Position numbers: made by a program. Below are positions 18,001 through 24,000 of a stretch of DNA of 64,000 bases, piece by piece. The stretch lies in the NCBI GenBank assembly GCA_963804085.1, contig CAWDOQ010000019.1, positions 160,001 through 224,000 on the forward strand. The letters are read 5' to 3'. Position 1 is the stretch's first letter. Each line of letters opens with the position of its first letter. Source of the stretch: Chlamydiia bacterium. Lineage in GTDB: Bacteria; Chlamydiota; Chlamydiia; Chlamydiales; Rhabdochlamydiaceae.

Positions 18001-21000
18001 CGTGTAGCAAGACGCGAACCGTAATTGATTCTGTAGATCGCGCGCATCTCTTTTTTAACAAAGACGCCTCCATAGCCATGGCTCAATGCTTTTAAACCAA
18101 GCGAGGTGAGCTCTTTGGCAAGAAGGTCCTCCAACCCTGGAGGACAGGTGACAAAAATGTTAGTTATGGAAGAAGAGTATGACATCGCCATCCTGCACAA
18201 TATAGTCTTTACCCTCGGAGCGCGCTTTACCAACATCTCTTGCGCCGACTCTTCCATTGTATTTCACAAAGTCGTCGTAGGAGATCACTTCAGCGCGGAT
18301 AAACCCTTTTTGTATATCGGTGTGGATCTTGCCGGCAGCTTCTGGTGCGGTGGATCCCTTGTGGATCGTCCAGGCGCGGGTCTCCATCTCGCCTGTTGTA
18401 AGGAAGGTGATGAGATCGAGTGTTCTAAAGCTTTCTTTAATCAGACGATTGAGACCGGTCTCTTGAAGTCCTAAAGTCTGTATAAATTCTGTGCTCTCTT
18501 GCTCTGATAGCTGTGCTATCTCTTCTTCGAGTTTGGCACAGATTGGGATCACGCGGTTGCCCTCTTTCTCTGCATAGGCGCGCACACGTGCTACCAGCTC
18601 ATTTTCCATAGAGGGAAGATCGCTTTCTGCGACGTTTGCTGCATAGACCACCTTTTTGTCGGTCAGAAACGGATAGGAGGCGAGATGCAATTTCTCTTCA
18701 GATGTCACAACAAGCGTGCGAAGCATCTTATTTTCATTGAGGTGTTTGACAGCTTTTTGCAGTGTCTCGAAGAGAGGGAGGAGCTCCTTTTTAGATTTCA
18801 CCTGCTTTTCCATCTTTTGGATGATGTTTTCTGCCATTTGAAGATCGGACAAGATAAGCTCTAGGTTGATCACCTCGATATCGGCGATCGGATCAACACG
18901 GCCGGAAACGTGGATCACATCATCATTTTCAAAGCAGCGGACTACATGTACAATCGCGTCAGTCTCGCGGATATTGGTTAAAAACTGGTTGCCGAGACCT
19001 GCGCCTTGAGAGGCTCCTTCGACTAGCCCTGCGATATCCACAAAGGTGATAGGGGCAGGCAGGAGCTTTTTGCTTCCTGAAATCGCAGAAAGGATCGCCA
19101 GACGCGGATCGGGTACATCGACGATTCCGACATTGGGATCGATCGTGCAAAAAGGGTAGTTTGCAGCTGCCGCCGCTTTACGGGTGAGCGCATTAAAAAG
19201 GGTAGATTTGCCCACATTGGGCAGCCCTACTATTCCACAAGATAGTCCTGACATATGGTGGGGTATTATAGGCAGAAAAGACTTATTTGCATAATTCTTT
19301 AACGTGCCCGTGCCCCTGCCCGTGCCTTTGCCCGATCTTTCTTCTCTTTTCTCTTCAATAATCCGGATCGGGCACGGGCACGCACACGGGCACAGGCACG
19401 TTAAAGAAATGAGGGTCAGGCTTCTAAAGATTTATAAGTCACTAAAAACAAAGCGTTTACGAGTTAAATAGAGTAAAAAAATTAATTGATACTAATTATA
19501 AAATGTAGTACAATTTATTTTACAAAACACTAAAATATAAGGATAATATGAGCGTAAAGGCAGTAAGAGTAGTAGAGATGACAAAAGTAGTAAGAATCGC
19601 TCCCGGAGAGGTAGGCGATAGTTCAGGGACGAGCTCGGGCTCGCCTCAGGGTAAGAAGCGTTCAAGTGTTGTCGCAAACAAGGCGCTTGAGTCGCTTGCT
19701 CATTCTCCTACTCGCCCATCTACTTCCTCTTCTAATTCTAGTGAGTCGCCTCAAAAGCCAAAGCATGTTTGGCAGCCACGCAAATCGGTGACGCTGGGCG
19801 GGCTTTCTGTCTCTACGAGAAGTCTTTGTGACCAGCCATCTTGGATCGATGAACATATGGGTGAGTGGGAAAAGGGGGGTCTTGGTTGGAAAGTAGCTGC
19901 AGCGGCCGGTAGATTTTTCTATGGCCTTGCAGAGATCGCAATTGTAAGACCCATTGGATTTTGTCTTGCAGCAGTCGCTGCTACCGCCTGTTTGGTTGCA
20001 GCTGTTGCCATGGGGATAATCGGAGCTATCACCTACTGTTGCTTTCCCAAAAATCTCGTGCGTGCTAAGGCGCTGTTAAAACTCTCTAAACTCTATGCAG
20101 AAGCAGCTAGTCGTGTCACAGGCAACCCTATAGGGCTCGTTGGCCGCACGGCTCTTTTCGGGCTCTCTTTGCTGGGAGCACTTGCCACGCTGCCCGGGGC
20201 ATGCTTCTATGGGTTAGAGCCTACAAAAAAGTGCCTGCGTTATGCCGGTTACAACCTAGTTTGTGCGAAAAGGAATATGGGAGAAATTGCAGGAGGAGCC
20301 CTCTCAGATGTGCCTTGTTATTTTTTCTCTAGGCTTTGTGGCGAATGCTGCTACAAATCACTCAAATCTTGGTACTGGTCTAACGTAGCTGAGTCGCTGC
20401 CCAAGCCAAATCCGGAAAAATCCAAAGCCCAGCAGATTGTAAATTCTCACAGACAATGTGGTTTCTATAAGTTTATCAGAAGTGTTACAGGCGGCGATAG
20501 CCTGGCACGCAATATCGTGCACAGACACGATTAAGCATAATTCCAGCCGAGGAGTTTAGAAGCTAAAGCCAGATCGCCTTGCTCGATGGCAAGACGGATG
20601 CGCCCTGAGGAGACCTCCTCGCCATCTACTTTGATCTTTTGCAGATACTCGGTTTGAAACTCTAAATTCTTTTCCAACTTTTTCACATGCGCCTCATCCC
20701 CGGCTTTTGCTCGTCCAAAAGTGGCGCCCTCTCCCAACACGAGATAGGAGAAGGGGAGCTTCTCTTTTATCGTTTTTAAAAATTGGTCGTAGCTCTCTTG
20801 CGCAAAAGCAATTGTGAAGGGGAGTATCAAGAGAAGATTGACGCCCGCCTTTTCTAAAAGTTTTTTCCTTGCATCGATTGTTGTGATCTCTTTGACAGGG
20901 GGTCGATTTTTCAAAACTTGAGAGGGGTGTGGCGAAAAGATGAGTACAGCCACAGTGCCATGCGCACCCACACGTGCACGGAGGCGTTTGAGCAGGAGCT

Positions 21001-24000
21001 GATGGCCCAAGTGCACTCCATCGAAACTACCCAAAGTAAGTCCTACGGGAGCGGGCAGGTGAGGGATATCTTCTAAGTTGGTCACTATTTGCATACTAGT
21101 ACGGAAAAGATGTTAAAGCCGGGTGCCAGTAGTTCATTCCAACCTATACACTGTTCGATAGAAAAAGTGCCAGAGCGTGTGCGTCTTAAATCGGAAAGGT
21201 GTGCAAAACATCCAAGCATCACCCCTAAATCGTGCGCAAGCGCGCGCACATAGGTGCCTTTAGAGCAGGTGATTTTTAAAGTGAGATGGGGATAGGCGTA
21301 AGCGAGAAGTTCTGTCTTAAGATGCACTTGCACGGGTGTCCGTTCGATGGTCACTCCTTTTCTCGCTAAATTATAGAGCTTTTTCCCTTGCACCTTTTTT
21401 GCAGAGAACATGGGAGGCGTTTGCATGATAGCGCCTTGAAACTTCTCTAGCGCATTTTCGATCTCGCTTTGAGTGGGTACCTTGTCAGAAAAGTCCAGCT
21501 GTCTTCCCTCAGCATCAAATGTATCTGTTGAGATCCCAAGCCGCAACTGGGCTAGATACTCTTTCTCTTGTGATAGAAATTGGTTGGAGAGGCGTGTGTA
21601 GGAGCGTCCTATTAGCATGACCATAACGCCTGTAGCTATTGGATCGAGCGTGCCTGCATGGCCAATTTTTTGGATTTTAGAAAGCCTACGCAGTGTAGAG
21701 ACCAGGCTAAAAGAGGTCTGGCCTTTGGGCTTGTCTAAAAGGAGTAAGCCTTCAGTTAACATTGTTGTCTGTAGTGGGTTTGCGTGTCTTTTGCTCTTCA
21801 TGGATTTTGCCTAAGAGCTCATCGACACGCAGCTGCTGTTCGACAGTCTGATCGAGTTTAAAGGTGAGGACGGGAAAGTAGCGCATAACCACTTTTTTAG
21901 AAGCTTTGATTGCGATAAAGCCAGCTGCTTCTTGCAGCGCTTCTAGCGTGTCTGCCTTTTCTTTGTCTGTACCGATTACGCTGATATACACTTTGGCGTG
22001 TTGTAAATCGCGGGTGATGTCGACCTGCGTAACACTTATGAGTTTTGCGACGCGCGGATTACGCACATCGCCTCGTATTACCTCGGTGATCACCTCTTTC
22101 AAAAGAGAATTTAGACGGTCTACTCTGTTTTTCTGCATGGCTTTATAGCTGCTGCTGCAGGTAGGTGATTTCAAAGGCCTGGAGCACGTCTCCTTCTTTG
22201 ACATCGTTAAAATTATGAATCAGAATGCCGCACTCGATGCCTTTGGTCACTTCGCGCACATCTTCTTTTACGCGTTTCAAAGAGGCGATCGGGCCTTTCC
22301 AAACCTGTTCGCCGTTTCGCATGACACGGATGTGGTTGTTCCTCTTGATCGTCCCCTCAATGACTTGACAGCCTGCGATGAGACCGAGCTGAGAGGCTTT
22401 GAAGGTGGCTTTTACAAGGGCGCTGCCGGTATCTGTCTCTTGCGGGATCTTATCGAGGAGTCCTAACATCAGCTCTTTCACGTCGTCGACTGCGTGGTAG
22501 ATGATATCGTGGACTTTTACTCGGACCTTTGTCTGTTTAATTAGAGGCTCCGCATGGCTGGCAATCTTCGTATGGAAGCCGAGGATCGTCGCTTTTGATG
22601 CGGCTGCAAGTTCAATATCCGATTCGGAAATATCGCCTACGTCGGAAGAGATGACGTTGATCTCGACTTTTGTCGATGGGATTTTTAACAGAGAATTTTT
22701 AAGCGCATCGAGCGAGCCTTGTACGTCGGCGCGCAAAATAAGAGGCAGAATCTTCTTCTCTTTGCGTTCTTTGTCTTTTTGGAGTAAGCCTTCGAGAGGA
22801 CCGCGCTTAGCATGGAGAAGGGCGTGACGTTTCCCTTCGGTACGCTCGTAAGAGACTTCGCGCGCTTCTTTTTCATTTTTGACAGCGATATATTCGCTGC
22901 CAGCTTCCGTAAGGCCGGAAAGGCCGGTGATCTTTACAGGTGAAGAGGGACCCGCTTCGCTCATCTCTTTGCCATGTTCATCTTGCATGGTTTTGACACG
23001 TGCCCATTGCTGGTCAAAGACGAGTGCGTCGCCCAAACGCAGCGTTCCGTTTTGGACGAGCAGTGTGGCGACATGGCCCATCCCTTTGTGCATCTCAGAT
23101 TCGATGACAGTTCCGCGTGCGCGTGTATGGGGATTGGCTTTTAATTCTAAGATTTCAGCTTGCAAGGCGAGCATTTCGAGCAGTTCTTTGATGCCAGCTT
23201 TTGTGACTGCAGAGCAGTTCACTGTGATCGTTGTGCCGCCCCAGACTTCCGGAAGAAGGTTCTGTTCGGCCAGCTGCTTGTAGATGTTGTCTGCATTGAA
23301 GTTGGGCTTATCTGCTTTGTTGATCGCAACTACGATCGGTACATTTGCAGCACGCGCCTGCTCGATCGCTTCGAGCGTCTGTGTGCGCATTCCTTCATCG
23401 CCTGCGATAACAAGAACGACGATATCTGTCACTTCAGCACCGCGTGTGCGCATTGCAGAGAAGGCTTCGTGGCCGGGTGTGTCCAAGATAGTGATATCAC
23501 CGACCGCTGTGTGGCATTTAAATGCGCCGATGTGTTGGGTGATTGCCCCAGCTTCGCCAGCAGCTAAATTGGTTTTGCGGATCGTGTCGATCAAGCTGGT
23601 TTTACCATGGTCGACGTGGCCCATGAAGGTGACGACAGGAGGACGTAAGATGAGCGAAGCAGGAGGTGTCTCTTGGACCTCTTGCTTAATCGTCTTATCG
23701 GTAATGCGGATTCTTTCCTCTTCTGTCTTGTCGATAGTGATGTTGCACTCAAACTCCTGACCGAGAAGCTGCACTGTGGTCTCATCGGCTAAAAGGTCGT
23801 TAAGCGTGATCACGAGGCCTTGCATGAAAAGTTTAGAGATTAGCTGAGAGGCTTTTAGTTTCATCGCCGAAGCGAGATCTTTAACGCTGATAGGAAGGCG
23901 TACGCTGAGTGTTTTGGGGCGGATGATCGCCTCTTCTTCCTCTTGCGTTCGCATTTTGTTCGAAGGTCTTCTTTTGCGCCATGCTTCATCGTCTGAAACG

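Follow-up and report, generated by a model that had tools for sequence, protein, structure and literature searches.

The ribF locus of this Rhabdochlamydiaceae genome raises the question of how a bacterium is supplied with flavin cofactors when its RibF is reduced to the FMN-adenylyltransferase (FMNAT) module and neither riboflavin synthesis nor riboflavin kinase is found in its genome. The window, i.e., the whole stretch of 64,000 nucleotides that was analyzed, contains the following features at this locus:

18160..19254, minus strand: ychF, the usual downstream neighbor of ribF in relatives (Pfam YchF-GTPase_C, E 5.1e-36)
19548..20534, plus strand: ORF of 328 aa, no known family, between ribF and ychF and convergent on ribF
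20531..21094, minus strand: ribF, reduced to the FMNAT module, 187 aa (Pfam FAD_syn, E 5.5e-37)
21085..21801, minus strand: truB, the upstream gene in the conserved infB-rbfA-truB-ribF run (Pfam TruB_N, E 1.2e-49)
21752..22204, minus strand: rbfA (limits are those of the ORF, the gene probably starting further downstream; Pfam RBFA, E 3.5e-30)

The ribF gene overlaps the end of truB, and its product ends with LLGWNYA before the stop codon. The convergent ORF, which overlaps the ribF stop codon by 4 bases, yielded no match in Pfam or NCBIfam. The three minus-strand frames downstream of ribF contain no kinase-like text, in line with the survey's finding that the gene stops at the end of its FMNAT domain. 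Among the 12 relatives read, ychF lies less than 100 bases behind ribF in six, and none has a kinase pseudogene behind the truncated ribF. The PutP gene in the window is broken by apparent frameshifts.

FAD_syn was the sole strong Pfam match of the ribF ORF (residues 18-164). The window protein covers only positions 1-192 of the models for bifunctional RibF and scores below their cut-offs (e.g., 111.6 bits for TIGR00083, cut-off 184.35). Its AlphaFold model has a pLDDT of 94.8 with all 187 residues above 70, i.e., a complete FMNAT fold, and matches the N-terminal module of the C. ammoniagenes FADS (2x0k) with a TM-score of 0.91; in sequence, the protein aligns to residues 18-186 of this FADS. 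Both features of the N-terminal FMNAT module, HxGH and xSST/SxxR, are present; the C-terminal kinase module with PTAN and the length of 300-340 aa that characterize bifunctional RibF are absent, as is the shortened, PTAN-less C-terminal module of FADS type II, the protein being without any C-terminal module. The positions of interest are:

21002..21013, minus strand: HxGH nucleotidyltransferase motif (H28-H31), invariant in 40 of 40 aligned chlamydial RibFs
20726..20728, minus strand: G123, at the place of C. ammoniagenes N125 (alignment to the sequence of the solved structure)
20594..20611, minus strand: SSGRIR motif of the xSST/SxxR type, residues 162-167 (alignment of chlamydial RibFs)

Regarding the C. 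ammoniagenes-type catalytic residues H28, H31, H57 and P58 and the flavin-pocket Phe, whose roles are described in PMC6829536, the window RibF has H28, H31, F53, H56, P57 and F93; F53, P57, F93, G121 and G127 are, like HxGH, invariant in all 40 chlamydial RibFs. At the place of N125, the phosphate-positioning residue according to PMC6829536, neither Asn nor Asp is found, the residue being Gly123 with Glu122 adjoining. This position is Asp in 10 of 12 kinase-positive RibFs and Gly in 10 of the 20 kinase-less RibFs of the main block. S163 and R167 are kept in all 20 of the latter, whereas position 164 is Gly in 13 of them and in none of the 12 kinase-positive proteins. With the equivalents of N125 and T165 both being Gly, the FMNAT activity of the window RibF may be weak or changed. 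The dN/dS of FMNAT was 0.07-0.23 in four pairs from f9, a family other than that of this genome, compared with 0.11-0.15 for truB; by this measure FMNAT is retained under purifying selection in relatives.

A 99% identical protein of 187 aa was found in the protein collection. The next 25 matches were 183-271 aa in length and lacked Flavokinase, the first Flavokinase-bearing match ranking 27th among the 60 listed; the search for related loci with the window protein yielded no relative. Among 28 kinase-less RibFs read, chosen on purpose for long frames, 19 combine FMNAT with a shorter C-terminal barrel without PTAN but with an LPPxGxY-type motif; the model of one kinase-less RibF of 301 aa aligned with 2x0k over 293 residues (Z 29.0, rmsd 3.0). 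These 19 resemble FADS type II, from which the window protein differs by the missing C-terminal module. Type II FADS is reported as the only form in three bacteria, among them Treponema pallidum (PMC2972280); the chlamydial type II-like forms derive from type I by several separate origins within the phylum. Table 1 of PMC2972280 lists stand-alone FMNAT genes in genomes that all have a bifunctional RibF or a separate kinase as well, whereas here the module is the sole flavin-cofactor enzyme found. At the truB locus, the window gene is the vertically inherited ribF and no second copy.

The Flavokinase profile gave no match in this genome at E<=10, no archaeal CTP-dependent riboflavin kinase was found (the family was not found in any of five genomes searched), and RibD, RibBA, RibE and RibH queries from riboflavin-making chlamydiae gave no tblastn match at E<0.01, in agreement with the reported lack of synthesis and kinase. 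The assembly is 91% complete, consists of 24 contigs and lacks some other common genes, so that genome-level absence rests on relatives. Flavokinase is missing in 128 of 129 Rhabdochlamydiaceae genomes and in 76 of 77 high-quality ones. The exception, genome G171, carries an acquired, unrelated cytidylyltransferase-flavokinase fusion away from truB; the claim of a family-wide absence thus holds for all of the 129 genomes but this one. The claim that RibF is cut down to FMNAT applies to this genome but only in part to its family, as three of seven family RibFs read carry a degenerate C-terminal barrel of 60-70 aa and 11 of 36 other family genomes gave no FAD_syn match. The counts given earlier point in the same direction, but, being from other samples, their exact figures were not reproduced. 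(Note that the family codes used here differ from the earlier f1, f7-f11 and f13, and that genome G005 was left out of the Flavokinase, FAD_syn, lumazine synthase, NTT, riboswitch, ECF and G171-type cytidylyltransferase counts.)

Among 200 scored genomes of the phylum, 65 had lumazine synthase, 79 Flavokinase and 153 FAD_syn over the cut-off. Judged from gene content, the losses are nested: synthesis, then kinase, then adenylyltransferase. Kinase absence beyond the family proved wider than claimed, with 121 of the 200 genomes past the kinase step. Of the 65 genomes with lumazine synthase, 64 retain the kinase; in the remaining one (G145), ribH stands isolated and GTP cyclohydrolase II gave no match. 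Neither half of RibF was found in 46 of the 200 genomes. In the four of these read at truB, a different gene lies directly behind truB; of 12 genomes without a ribF match, 10 have 390-1020 ribF-free bases behind truB, one has only 218 bases there and one has no truB match. The whole chromosome of one ribF-less genome (G091; 1,195,517 bases) contains no RibF, RibBA, RibE or RibH match, yet, judged by sequence motifs, it encodes chorismate synthase, thioredoxin reductase, GidA, SdhA and Nqr subunits. Cells such as these must obtain finished cofactors by import. Replacement of RibF by a cytidylyltransferase of the G171 type in total-loss genomes was rejected: among the 200 genomes only G171 itself gave a strong match, the other 87 matches being partial (27-44%) and in frames mostly of about 165-230 or 510 aa.

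The kinase was lost more than once. In the FMNAT-domain tree, which stands in for a species tree (187 columns, most inner branches weak), kinase-less G110 is sister to kinase-positive G055 of the same genus with a support of 99. A single clade of all kinase-less FMNATs was rejected in an AU test on 30 of 40 rows under a simpler model (p-AU 0.019), and further kinase losses lie within families f4, f6 and f8.

The explanation that we consider probable, with some confidence, is that the organism is an FMN/FAD auxotroph which imports FMN and/or FAD of the host via a transporter shared with other chlamydiae, its trimmed RibF interconverting the two. Riboflavin synthesis and riboflavin kinase have been lost, so that imported riboflavin would be useless to this organism; a phosphorylated flavin (FMN, FAD or both) would be taken from the host cell, and the 187-aa remnant would catalyze FMN + ATP <-> FAD + PPi, supplying FMN and FAD enzymes. 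The gene losses, their order and repetition, the intact FMNAT fold and the purifying selection in relatives are evident at the sequence level, while uptake, enzyme activity and its direction are what we infer from them. That FMN or FAD is taken up instead of riboflavin, as already proposed by the survey, is well supported by the nested and repeated losses, by the 46 genomes without ribF and by precedents in Listeria and Rickettsia.

An incomplete or mis-assembled genome, to which the incompleteness, the contig number and the split PutP gene might point, has a negligible probability and is ruled out as the cause by the recurrence of the same RibF length in related proteins, by the kinase absence across the family including its high-quality genomes and by the adjacency of ychF in six relatives. 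It is improbable that imported riboflavin is phosphorylated by a kinase or phosphotransferase that is non-homologous and has escaped recognition, FMNAT then making FAD from the product. A homology search is blind to such an enzyme, three transporters of R. helvetica are reported to be 22-28% identical to riboflavin transporters (PMC6490308), HAD hydrolases occur in this genome (e.g., window 31751-32425), and a NAD kinase is common to this genome and G091 but not to riboflavin-making G007. However, with a replacement kinase available, riboflavin makers could lose their own, and at most one of 65 has done so; the kinase was lost only after synthesis was gone, and the pattern is therefore unlike that expected under replacement. 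Neither would replacement explain why 46 genomes lost FMNAT as well; the archaeal family was not found in the five genomes searched, and a new kinase would be needed in every independent loss.

Somewhat less unlikely, yet still doubtful, is the direct import of both FMN and FAD, with the module acting mainly as a FAD pyrophosphorylase (FAD + PPi -> FMN + ATP) or in another nucleotidyl-transfer role. The reaction of the C. ammoniagenes module is described as reversible (PMC6829536), the exchanges of Asp/Asn to Gly at the phosphate-positioning site and of Ser/Thr to Gly at 164 occur frequently among kinase-less RibFs of the main block but are absent in kinase-positive RibFs, and ribF was lost outright in many lineages. 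Yet Asp is kept in seven of 20 main-block and six of eight other kinase-less proteins, a neighboring Glu or Asp (12 of 20) may substitute for the N125 equivalent, and no variation is seen in the residues of the ATP and flavin sites; moreover, a module running in reverse differs from the FMN/FAD-uptake explanation in direction only.

Under FMN/FAD uptake a carrier is needed, for which the survey had put forward the divergent NTT g01026 (G000:C15:11283-12563). This short protein has the features of the NTT/TLC family (PF03219, 44.5 bits, cut-off 21; 10 hydrophobic segments), shares 53% identity with a named record from Simkania sp. and is a putative orthologue of SnNTT4, judged from copy number, distribution and this record rather than from an alignment to SnNTT4. 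Simkania negevensis SnNTT4 and R. helvetica RhT_00750-00752 are distributed as g01026 is, which has three tandem copies in genus g3; the orthogroup contains one gene of Simkania, three of R. helvetica and two others. Within one block of 12 families, 104 of 105 genomes have a relative of g01026; all 105 except G171 are kinase-less, and no kinase-positive genome outside the block has such a relative. In genus g3, where ribF is lost altogether, two or three copies were counted, arranged in tandem wherever their positions were listed. In PMC5381601 and PMC11317633, SnNTT4 is described without a substrate and without nucleotide transport in heterologous assays, and other NTTs as carrying the dinucleotide NAD.

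On the other hand, a g01026-like NTT is missing from all 17 kinase-less genomes outside the block (five in f10, three each in f4 and f6, two in f24 and one each in f8, f17, f26 and f27), four of which, searched leniently, gave only partial matches of 21-40%. The NTTs of G110, which lost the kinase, are all orthologues of those of G055, and a single copy is present in the other lineages of the block with total loss. The closest characterised relative is reported to be the diatom purine-nucleotide carrier PtNTT5. Each of the three loci read has an HD-domain hydrolase as a conserved neighbor, besides a thiol peroxidase or malic-enzyme-like gene, with a GuaB-like gene adjoining in this genome and no flavin genes. 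The association with kinase loss thus amounts to one evolutionary event and does not track the independent losses, as the earlier caveat about shared descent had anticipated; g01026 is an unlikely FMN/FAD carrier, even for the block that includes this genome.

Other searches for a carrier gave no better candidate. Subtraction on one chromosome pair (G091 and G007, plasmids excluded) left only three of 1025 G091 ORFs that match this genome but not, or much more weakly, G007, namely an exonuclease, a short-chain dehydrogenase and the NAD kinase, hence no transporter; the three NTT-like proteins of G091 are the same three as in G007. No ECF S component (PF12822, RibU type) exceeded the cut-off in 200 chlamydial genomes, so the carrier would be of another kind than RibU; chlamydiae also live inside an inclusion. 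The second ECF family (PF07155) was absent from five genomes, and PnuC/RibM (PF04973) was represented in 20 of 201 genomes by partial matches of about 65 residues in short frames, none of them in this genome. FMN riboswitches as pointers were found in none of 149 genomes, and no transporter gene that could be tied to flavin adjoins the rib operons in eight loci. Known flavin uptake systems include RibN, ImpX (EamA), RfnT, RibZ (MFS) and RfuABCD, and this genome encodes several EamA-like and many MFS-like proteins. A common transporter that chlamydiae already have among them, and not the lineage-specific g01026, is the probable carrier. As a first guess, a nucleotide carrier of the Npt1/Npt2 type may import flavin cofactors: it is conceivable, though tentative, that FAD and/or FMN are additional substrates of an all-chlamydial carrier, with Npt1, the translocase for ATP/ADP (and NAD), or its paralogue Npt2 as the most plausible choice, which would have made riboflavin kinase repeatedly dispensable, the trimmed RibF working largely in reverse and splitting host FAD into FMN + ATP. 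Different chlamydial lineages may use different carriers.

Both precedents match this genome in part. The RibF of Listeria monocytogenes (lmo0728) is likewise an FMNAT module without kinase activity and converts FMN to FAD; Listeria without RibC and RibF grows in host cells, where FMN/FAD are more abundant than riboflavin, on FMN/FAD imported by RibU (PMC9060500). This proves by experiment that host FMN/FAD can sustain an intracellular bacterium without RibC and RibF of its own; the chlamydial evidence consists of gene presence and absence. Rickettsia, as described in PMC5615194, similarly has no riboflavin synthesis and no kinase/FAD synthetase, inferred import of FMN and FAD and no known carrier; none was found for chlamydiae in the present searches either. 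Rickettsia represents the end state only, whereas the chlamydiae offer every intermediate and several independent losses. According to one preprint (10.1101/2024.11.01.621453), chlamydiae of vertebrates gained their riboflavin metabolism; in contrast, the RibF data point to loss in the lineages considered here.

The chlamydiae thus present a graded, repeated series of riboflavin maker, importer with kinase, dead kinase barrel, bare adenylyltransferase and no ribF. This series leaves only a small number of shared transporters to be searched for the carrier and offers a simple selection for finding it; if the Npt1/Npt2 route were true, the same carrier family would account for the missing flavin-cofactor transporter of Rickettsia. 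Annotations of these proteins as 'riboflavin kinase/FMN adenylyltransferase' are wrong for the kinase half, and host-free media for these organisms are predicted to need FMN or FAD, not riboflavin.

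The ribF gene lies behind infB-rbfA-truB, and its stop is overlapped by a convergent ORF.

20531-21094 (-): ribF, 187-aa ORF
19548-20534 (+): 328-aa ORF of no known family, between ribF and ychF

FAD_syn is the sole strong Pfam match of the 187-aa protein (E 5.5e-37), whose C-terminus (LLGWNYA) falls where the FMN-adenylyltransferase (FMNAT) module ends; none of the minus-strand frames downstream held kinase-like sequence. AlphaFold predicts a complete fold (pLDDT 94.8), which has a TM-score of 0.91 against the N-terminal FAD synthetase module from C. ammoniagenes. Among the 60 matches of a protein search, one 187-aa homologue is 99% identical, and another 25 homologues that lack the kinase (183-271 aa) outrank the first full-length RibF, so that an assembly error does not account for the truncation. 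The survey's finding that RibF ends at its FMNAT domain is thus borne out, and the truncated RibF is a real, widespread feature. The 328-aa ORF, with its Ser-rich N-terminus and long hydrophobic middle, may resemble an inclusion-membrane protein.

Other features of the window were as follows.

8210-16927 (-): type III secretion genes (SctU-like, SctV-like, SctW gatekeeper, chaperone; SctW alone named by search), with a Fic-domain ORF (12422-13513) and an unassigned ORF (11774-12382) intervening
30802-32425 (+): YvcK-family gene, then HAD hydrolase
40223-41674 (-): sodium/proline symporter PutP split in three consecutive ORFs (model positions 5-107, 141-278 and 312-470), either a pseudogene or assembly indels
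49463-50563 (-): IS4-family transposase
52579-53907: MFS transporter gene, directly preceding histidine decarboxylase
53864-55066 (+): histidine decarboxylase (469.6 vs an NCBIfam cut-off of 305) behind an MFS transporter, an unusual find in a chlamydia
60723-61955 (+): 410-aa ORF weakly matching sphingomyelin phosphodiesterase (E 9.7e-8, far under the cut-off)

Searches of this genome gave no match to Flavokinase at E<=10, none to the archaeal riboflavin kinase and none to the RibD, RibBA, RibE and RibH queries, which agrees with the earlier claim that riboflavin synthesis and kinase are missing. The genome encodes flavoproteins, which we take from motifs to be chorismate synthase, thioredoxin reductase, GidA and SdhA, and therefore needs both FMN and FAD. 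A further FAD enzyme, soluble NAD(P) transhydrogenase, scores over the cut-off at window 1963-3360 (+).

Across the family, Flavokinase was found in one of 129 genomes (one of 77 among those of high quality). The claim of a family without riboflavin kinase accordingly stands for 128 genomes and fails for one, G171, which encodes a cytidylyltransferase-flavokinase fusion within a menaquinone-like gene run.

L024:2458-3378 (G171:C4): the fusion, its N-terminus lipoprotein-like; the genus of G171 has lost ribF

The best named full-length relative of this fusion (45%) comes from Ca. Symbiodolus clandestinus, which suggests that it was acquired. Rickettsia and Tisiphia endosymbionts have the cytidylyltransferase-family domain as a separate protein, which a Rickettsiales record labels FAD synthase; fusions of this type may be an alternative origin of bifunctional FAD synthase that spreads between symbionts of arthropods.

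Of 200 genomes scored across the phylum, 65 had lumazine synthase, 79 flavokinase and 153 FAD_syn over the cut-off; the genomes divided into 78 with bifunctional RibF, 75 with FMNAT only, 46 with neither half and one with the fusion. The kinase is kept in 64 of the 65 lumazine-synthase genomes, and the presence sets are therefore nested; the remaining genome has ribH in isolation and lacks GTP cyclohydrolase II. At the truB locus, a different gene comes next in all four total-loss genomes inspected and, in a second set, in 10 of 12 genomes without a ribF match (of the other two, one had too little DNA and one no truB match). Total loss of ribF is a real deletion where the locus is readable. 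The whole chromosome of G091, of the Chlamydiaceae family, has no rib gene, its sole match being a weak RibD hit to the deaminase part only. About 100 kb of the same chromosome is taken up by tandemly arranged paralogous proteins (L121-L126) that are unmatched in this genome and in the riboflavin maker G007.

Loss of the kinase was repeated within the phylum. An FMNAT tree (40 rows and 187 columns, from a quick search) places kinase-less G110 and kinase-positive G055, members of one genus, as sisters with support 99, and of the seven changes of kinase state shown at least two are forced by starred branches. A single clade of kinase-less sequences was rejected (p-AU 0.019) on 30 rows, 10 being omitted for speed or long branches. 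Families with internal losses retain the kinase in 25/28 (f4), 18/21 (f6) and 1/2 (f8) genomes. Branches of independent loss include those of G110, G133 and G025 and the losses in f4 and f10.

The decay of the kinase half is graded, which is an addition to the survey's account. Among 28 kinase-less RibFs inspected, for which long frames were chosen deliberately and short ones added, nine end at 181-197 aa and 19 retain a C-terminal remnant (246-301 aa in total). The kinase-module motif PTAN occurs in none of them, as against nine of 12 kinase-positive RibFs, the other three carrying HTAN, KTAN or ATIN. On visual inspection, about five of the 19 remnants retain the catalytic acid and none the last helix. 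A 301-aa kinase-less RibF is modelled (pLDDT 91.0) as a full two-module protein and superposes on the C. ammoniagenes structure 2x0k with Z 29.0 and rmsd 3.0 over 293 residues. The barrel of this form is under purifying selection (dN/dS 0.07-0.35, four pairs) and probably serves as structural support. FMNAT with a kinase-dead barrel, as in these relatives, corresponds to the type II architecture in the available text of Yruela et al. (PMC2972280). The barrel-retaining form was found in named Simkania sp. records (L154, L156), and full truncation also in five other families (f7, f9, f10, f24, f27).

The most likely mechanism is import of FMN and/or FAD by the cell. Such import would make riboflavin kinase useless at once, and FMNAT, the reaction of which is reversible according to passages of PMC6829536, would remain as a dispensable balancer between FMN and FAD. 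Excerpts of PMC9060500 describe Listeria as an intracellular bacterium able to live on such import, and Rickettsia is inferred to do so in part of PMC5615194. The rival explanation, a hidden riboflavin kinase in the kinase-less genomes, is opposed both by the nesting of the losses and by the 46 genomes with neither RibF half; the proposed uptake of FMN or FAD stands, and reaches 121 of the 200 sampled genomes. Less than full confidence attaches to the enzyme step because of two positions: that of C. ammoniagenes N125 is Gly in the window RibF and 10/20 proteins of the main block (12 families, 105 genomes) vs Asp in 10/12 kinase-positive chlamydial RibFs, and position 164 is Gly in 13/20 main-block proteins vs 0/12 kinase-positive ones. 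Judged from these residues, the activity or direction of FMNAT may be shifted.

The divergent NTT g01026 (426 aa), which the survey had put forward as FMN/FAD carrier, has strong matches in 104 genomes, all within the main block (104/105); two further matches (26-27%) both lie in kinase-positive genomes. Orthology to SnNTT4 is probable, given the two or three copies in genus g3, the three SnNTT4-like genes in tandem in R. helvetica (PMC6490308, section 14 and a supplement row) and 53% identity to a named Simkania sp. protein; passages of PMC5381601 and PMC11317633 give the substrate of SnNTT4 as not known. Outside the block, g01026 was found in none of 17 kinase-less genomes (lenient search in four of them). 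The NTTs of G110 are orthologues of those of G055 and nothing more, and the NTT-like proteins of G091 are the same three as in G007, NTT-HEAT fusion included (TLC matches in ribF-less G091, G103 and G141: two each). The link to flavins thus reduces to a single event in the tree, as the survey's caveat of shared descent had anticipated; its candidate carrier is not borne out, and although g01026 may still act as carrier within the block, nothing independent supports it. The NTTs of this genome number four (C19:63979, C17:135752, C17:132810 and C15:11283), the last being g01026. At three loci (G000:C15:8936-12563, L275, L276) g01026 sits downstream of an HD-domain hydrolase; we take its neighbours to be this hydrolase (3/3), thiol peroxidase, a malic-enzyme-like gene in two and, upstream in this genome, a GuaB-like gene. 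The hydrolase and GuaB-like neighbours faintly suggest a role with purine nucleotides. G055 has a highly divergent NTT of 431 aa (L225:1465-2760); Pfam TLC did not pick it up, and it was not found in G110.

Of 1025 G091 ORFs, subtraction against G007 and this genome left three that G091 has in common with this genome and that G007 lacks or matches much more weakly: an exonuclease, a short-chain dehydrogenase and NAD kinase. None of the three is a transporter. The NAD kinase lies at L127:4320-5195 in G091 and was not found in G007. ECF S components, full-length PnuC and FMN riboswitches were searched for and not found. Membrane proteins common to all three genomes include Npt1 (62% identity between G091 and this genome), Npt2, UhpC, an EamA protein, YitT and Vut_1 proteins. 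FAD is an ADP-containing dinucleotide. Since Npt1 reportedly carries another such compound, NAD (Fisher 2013, as cited in passages of PMC5381601 and PMC6171736), a first guess for the flavin-cofactor carrier would be the Npt1/Npt2 type.

Lack of riboflavin synthesis is reported for a spider Rhabdochlamydia (PMC9997750), in general terms for R. helvetica (PMC6490308) and for Clavichlamydia and Parilichlamydiaceae (PMC10448858), in passages of these papers. No report of chlamydial RibF kinase-half loss or FMN/FAD import was found in the full-text literature, where few subscription papers and supplements were covered; the accessible portions of PMC6171736, PMC9666466, PMC10995303, PMC5544777 and the preprints 10.1101/2024.11.01.621453 and 10.1101/2023.03.17.533158 do not touch on kinase loss. 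The chlamydial case resembles FAD synthases of the monofunctional or type II kind, combined with an inferred parasitism on host cofactors. The repeated series of losses allows a direct test of which carrier brings flavin cofactors into obligate intracellular bacteria.
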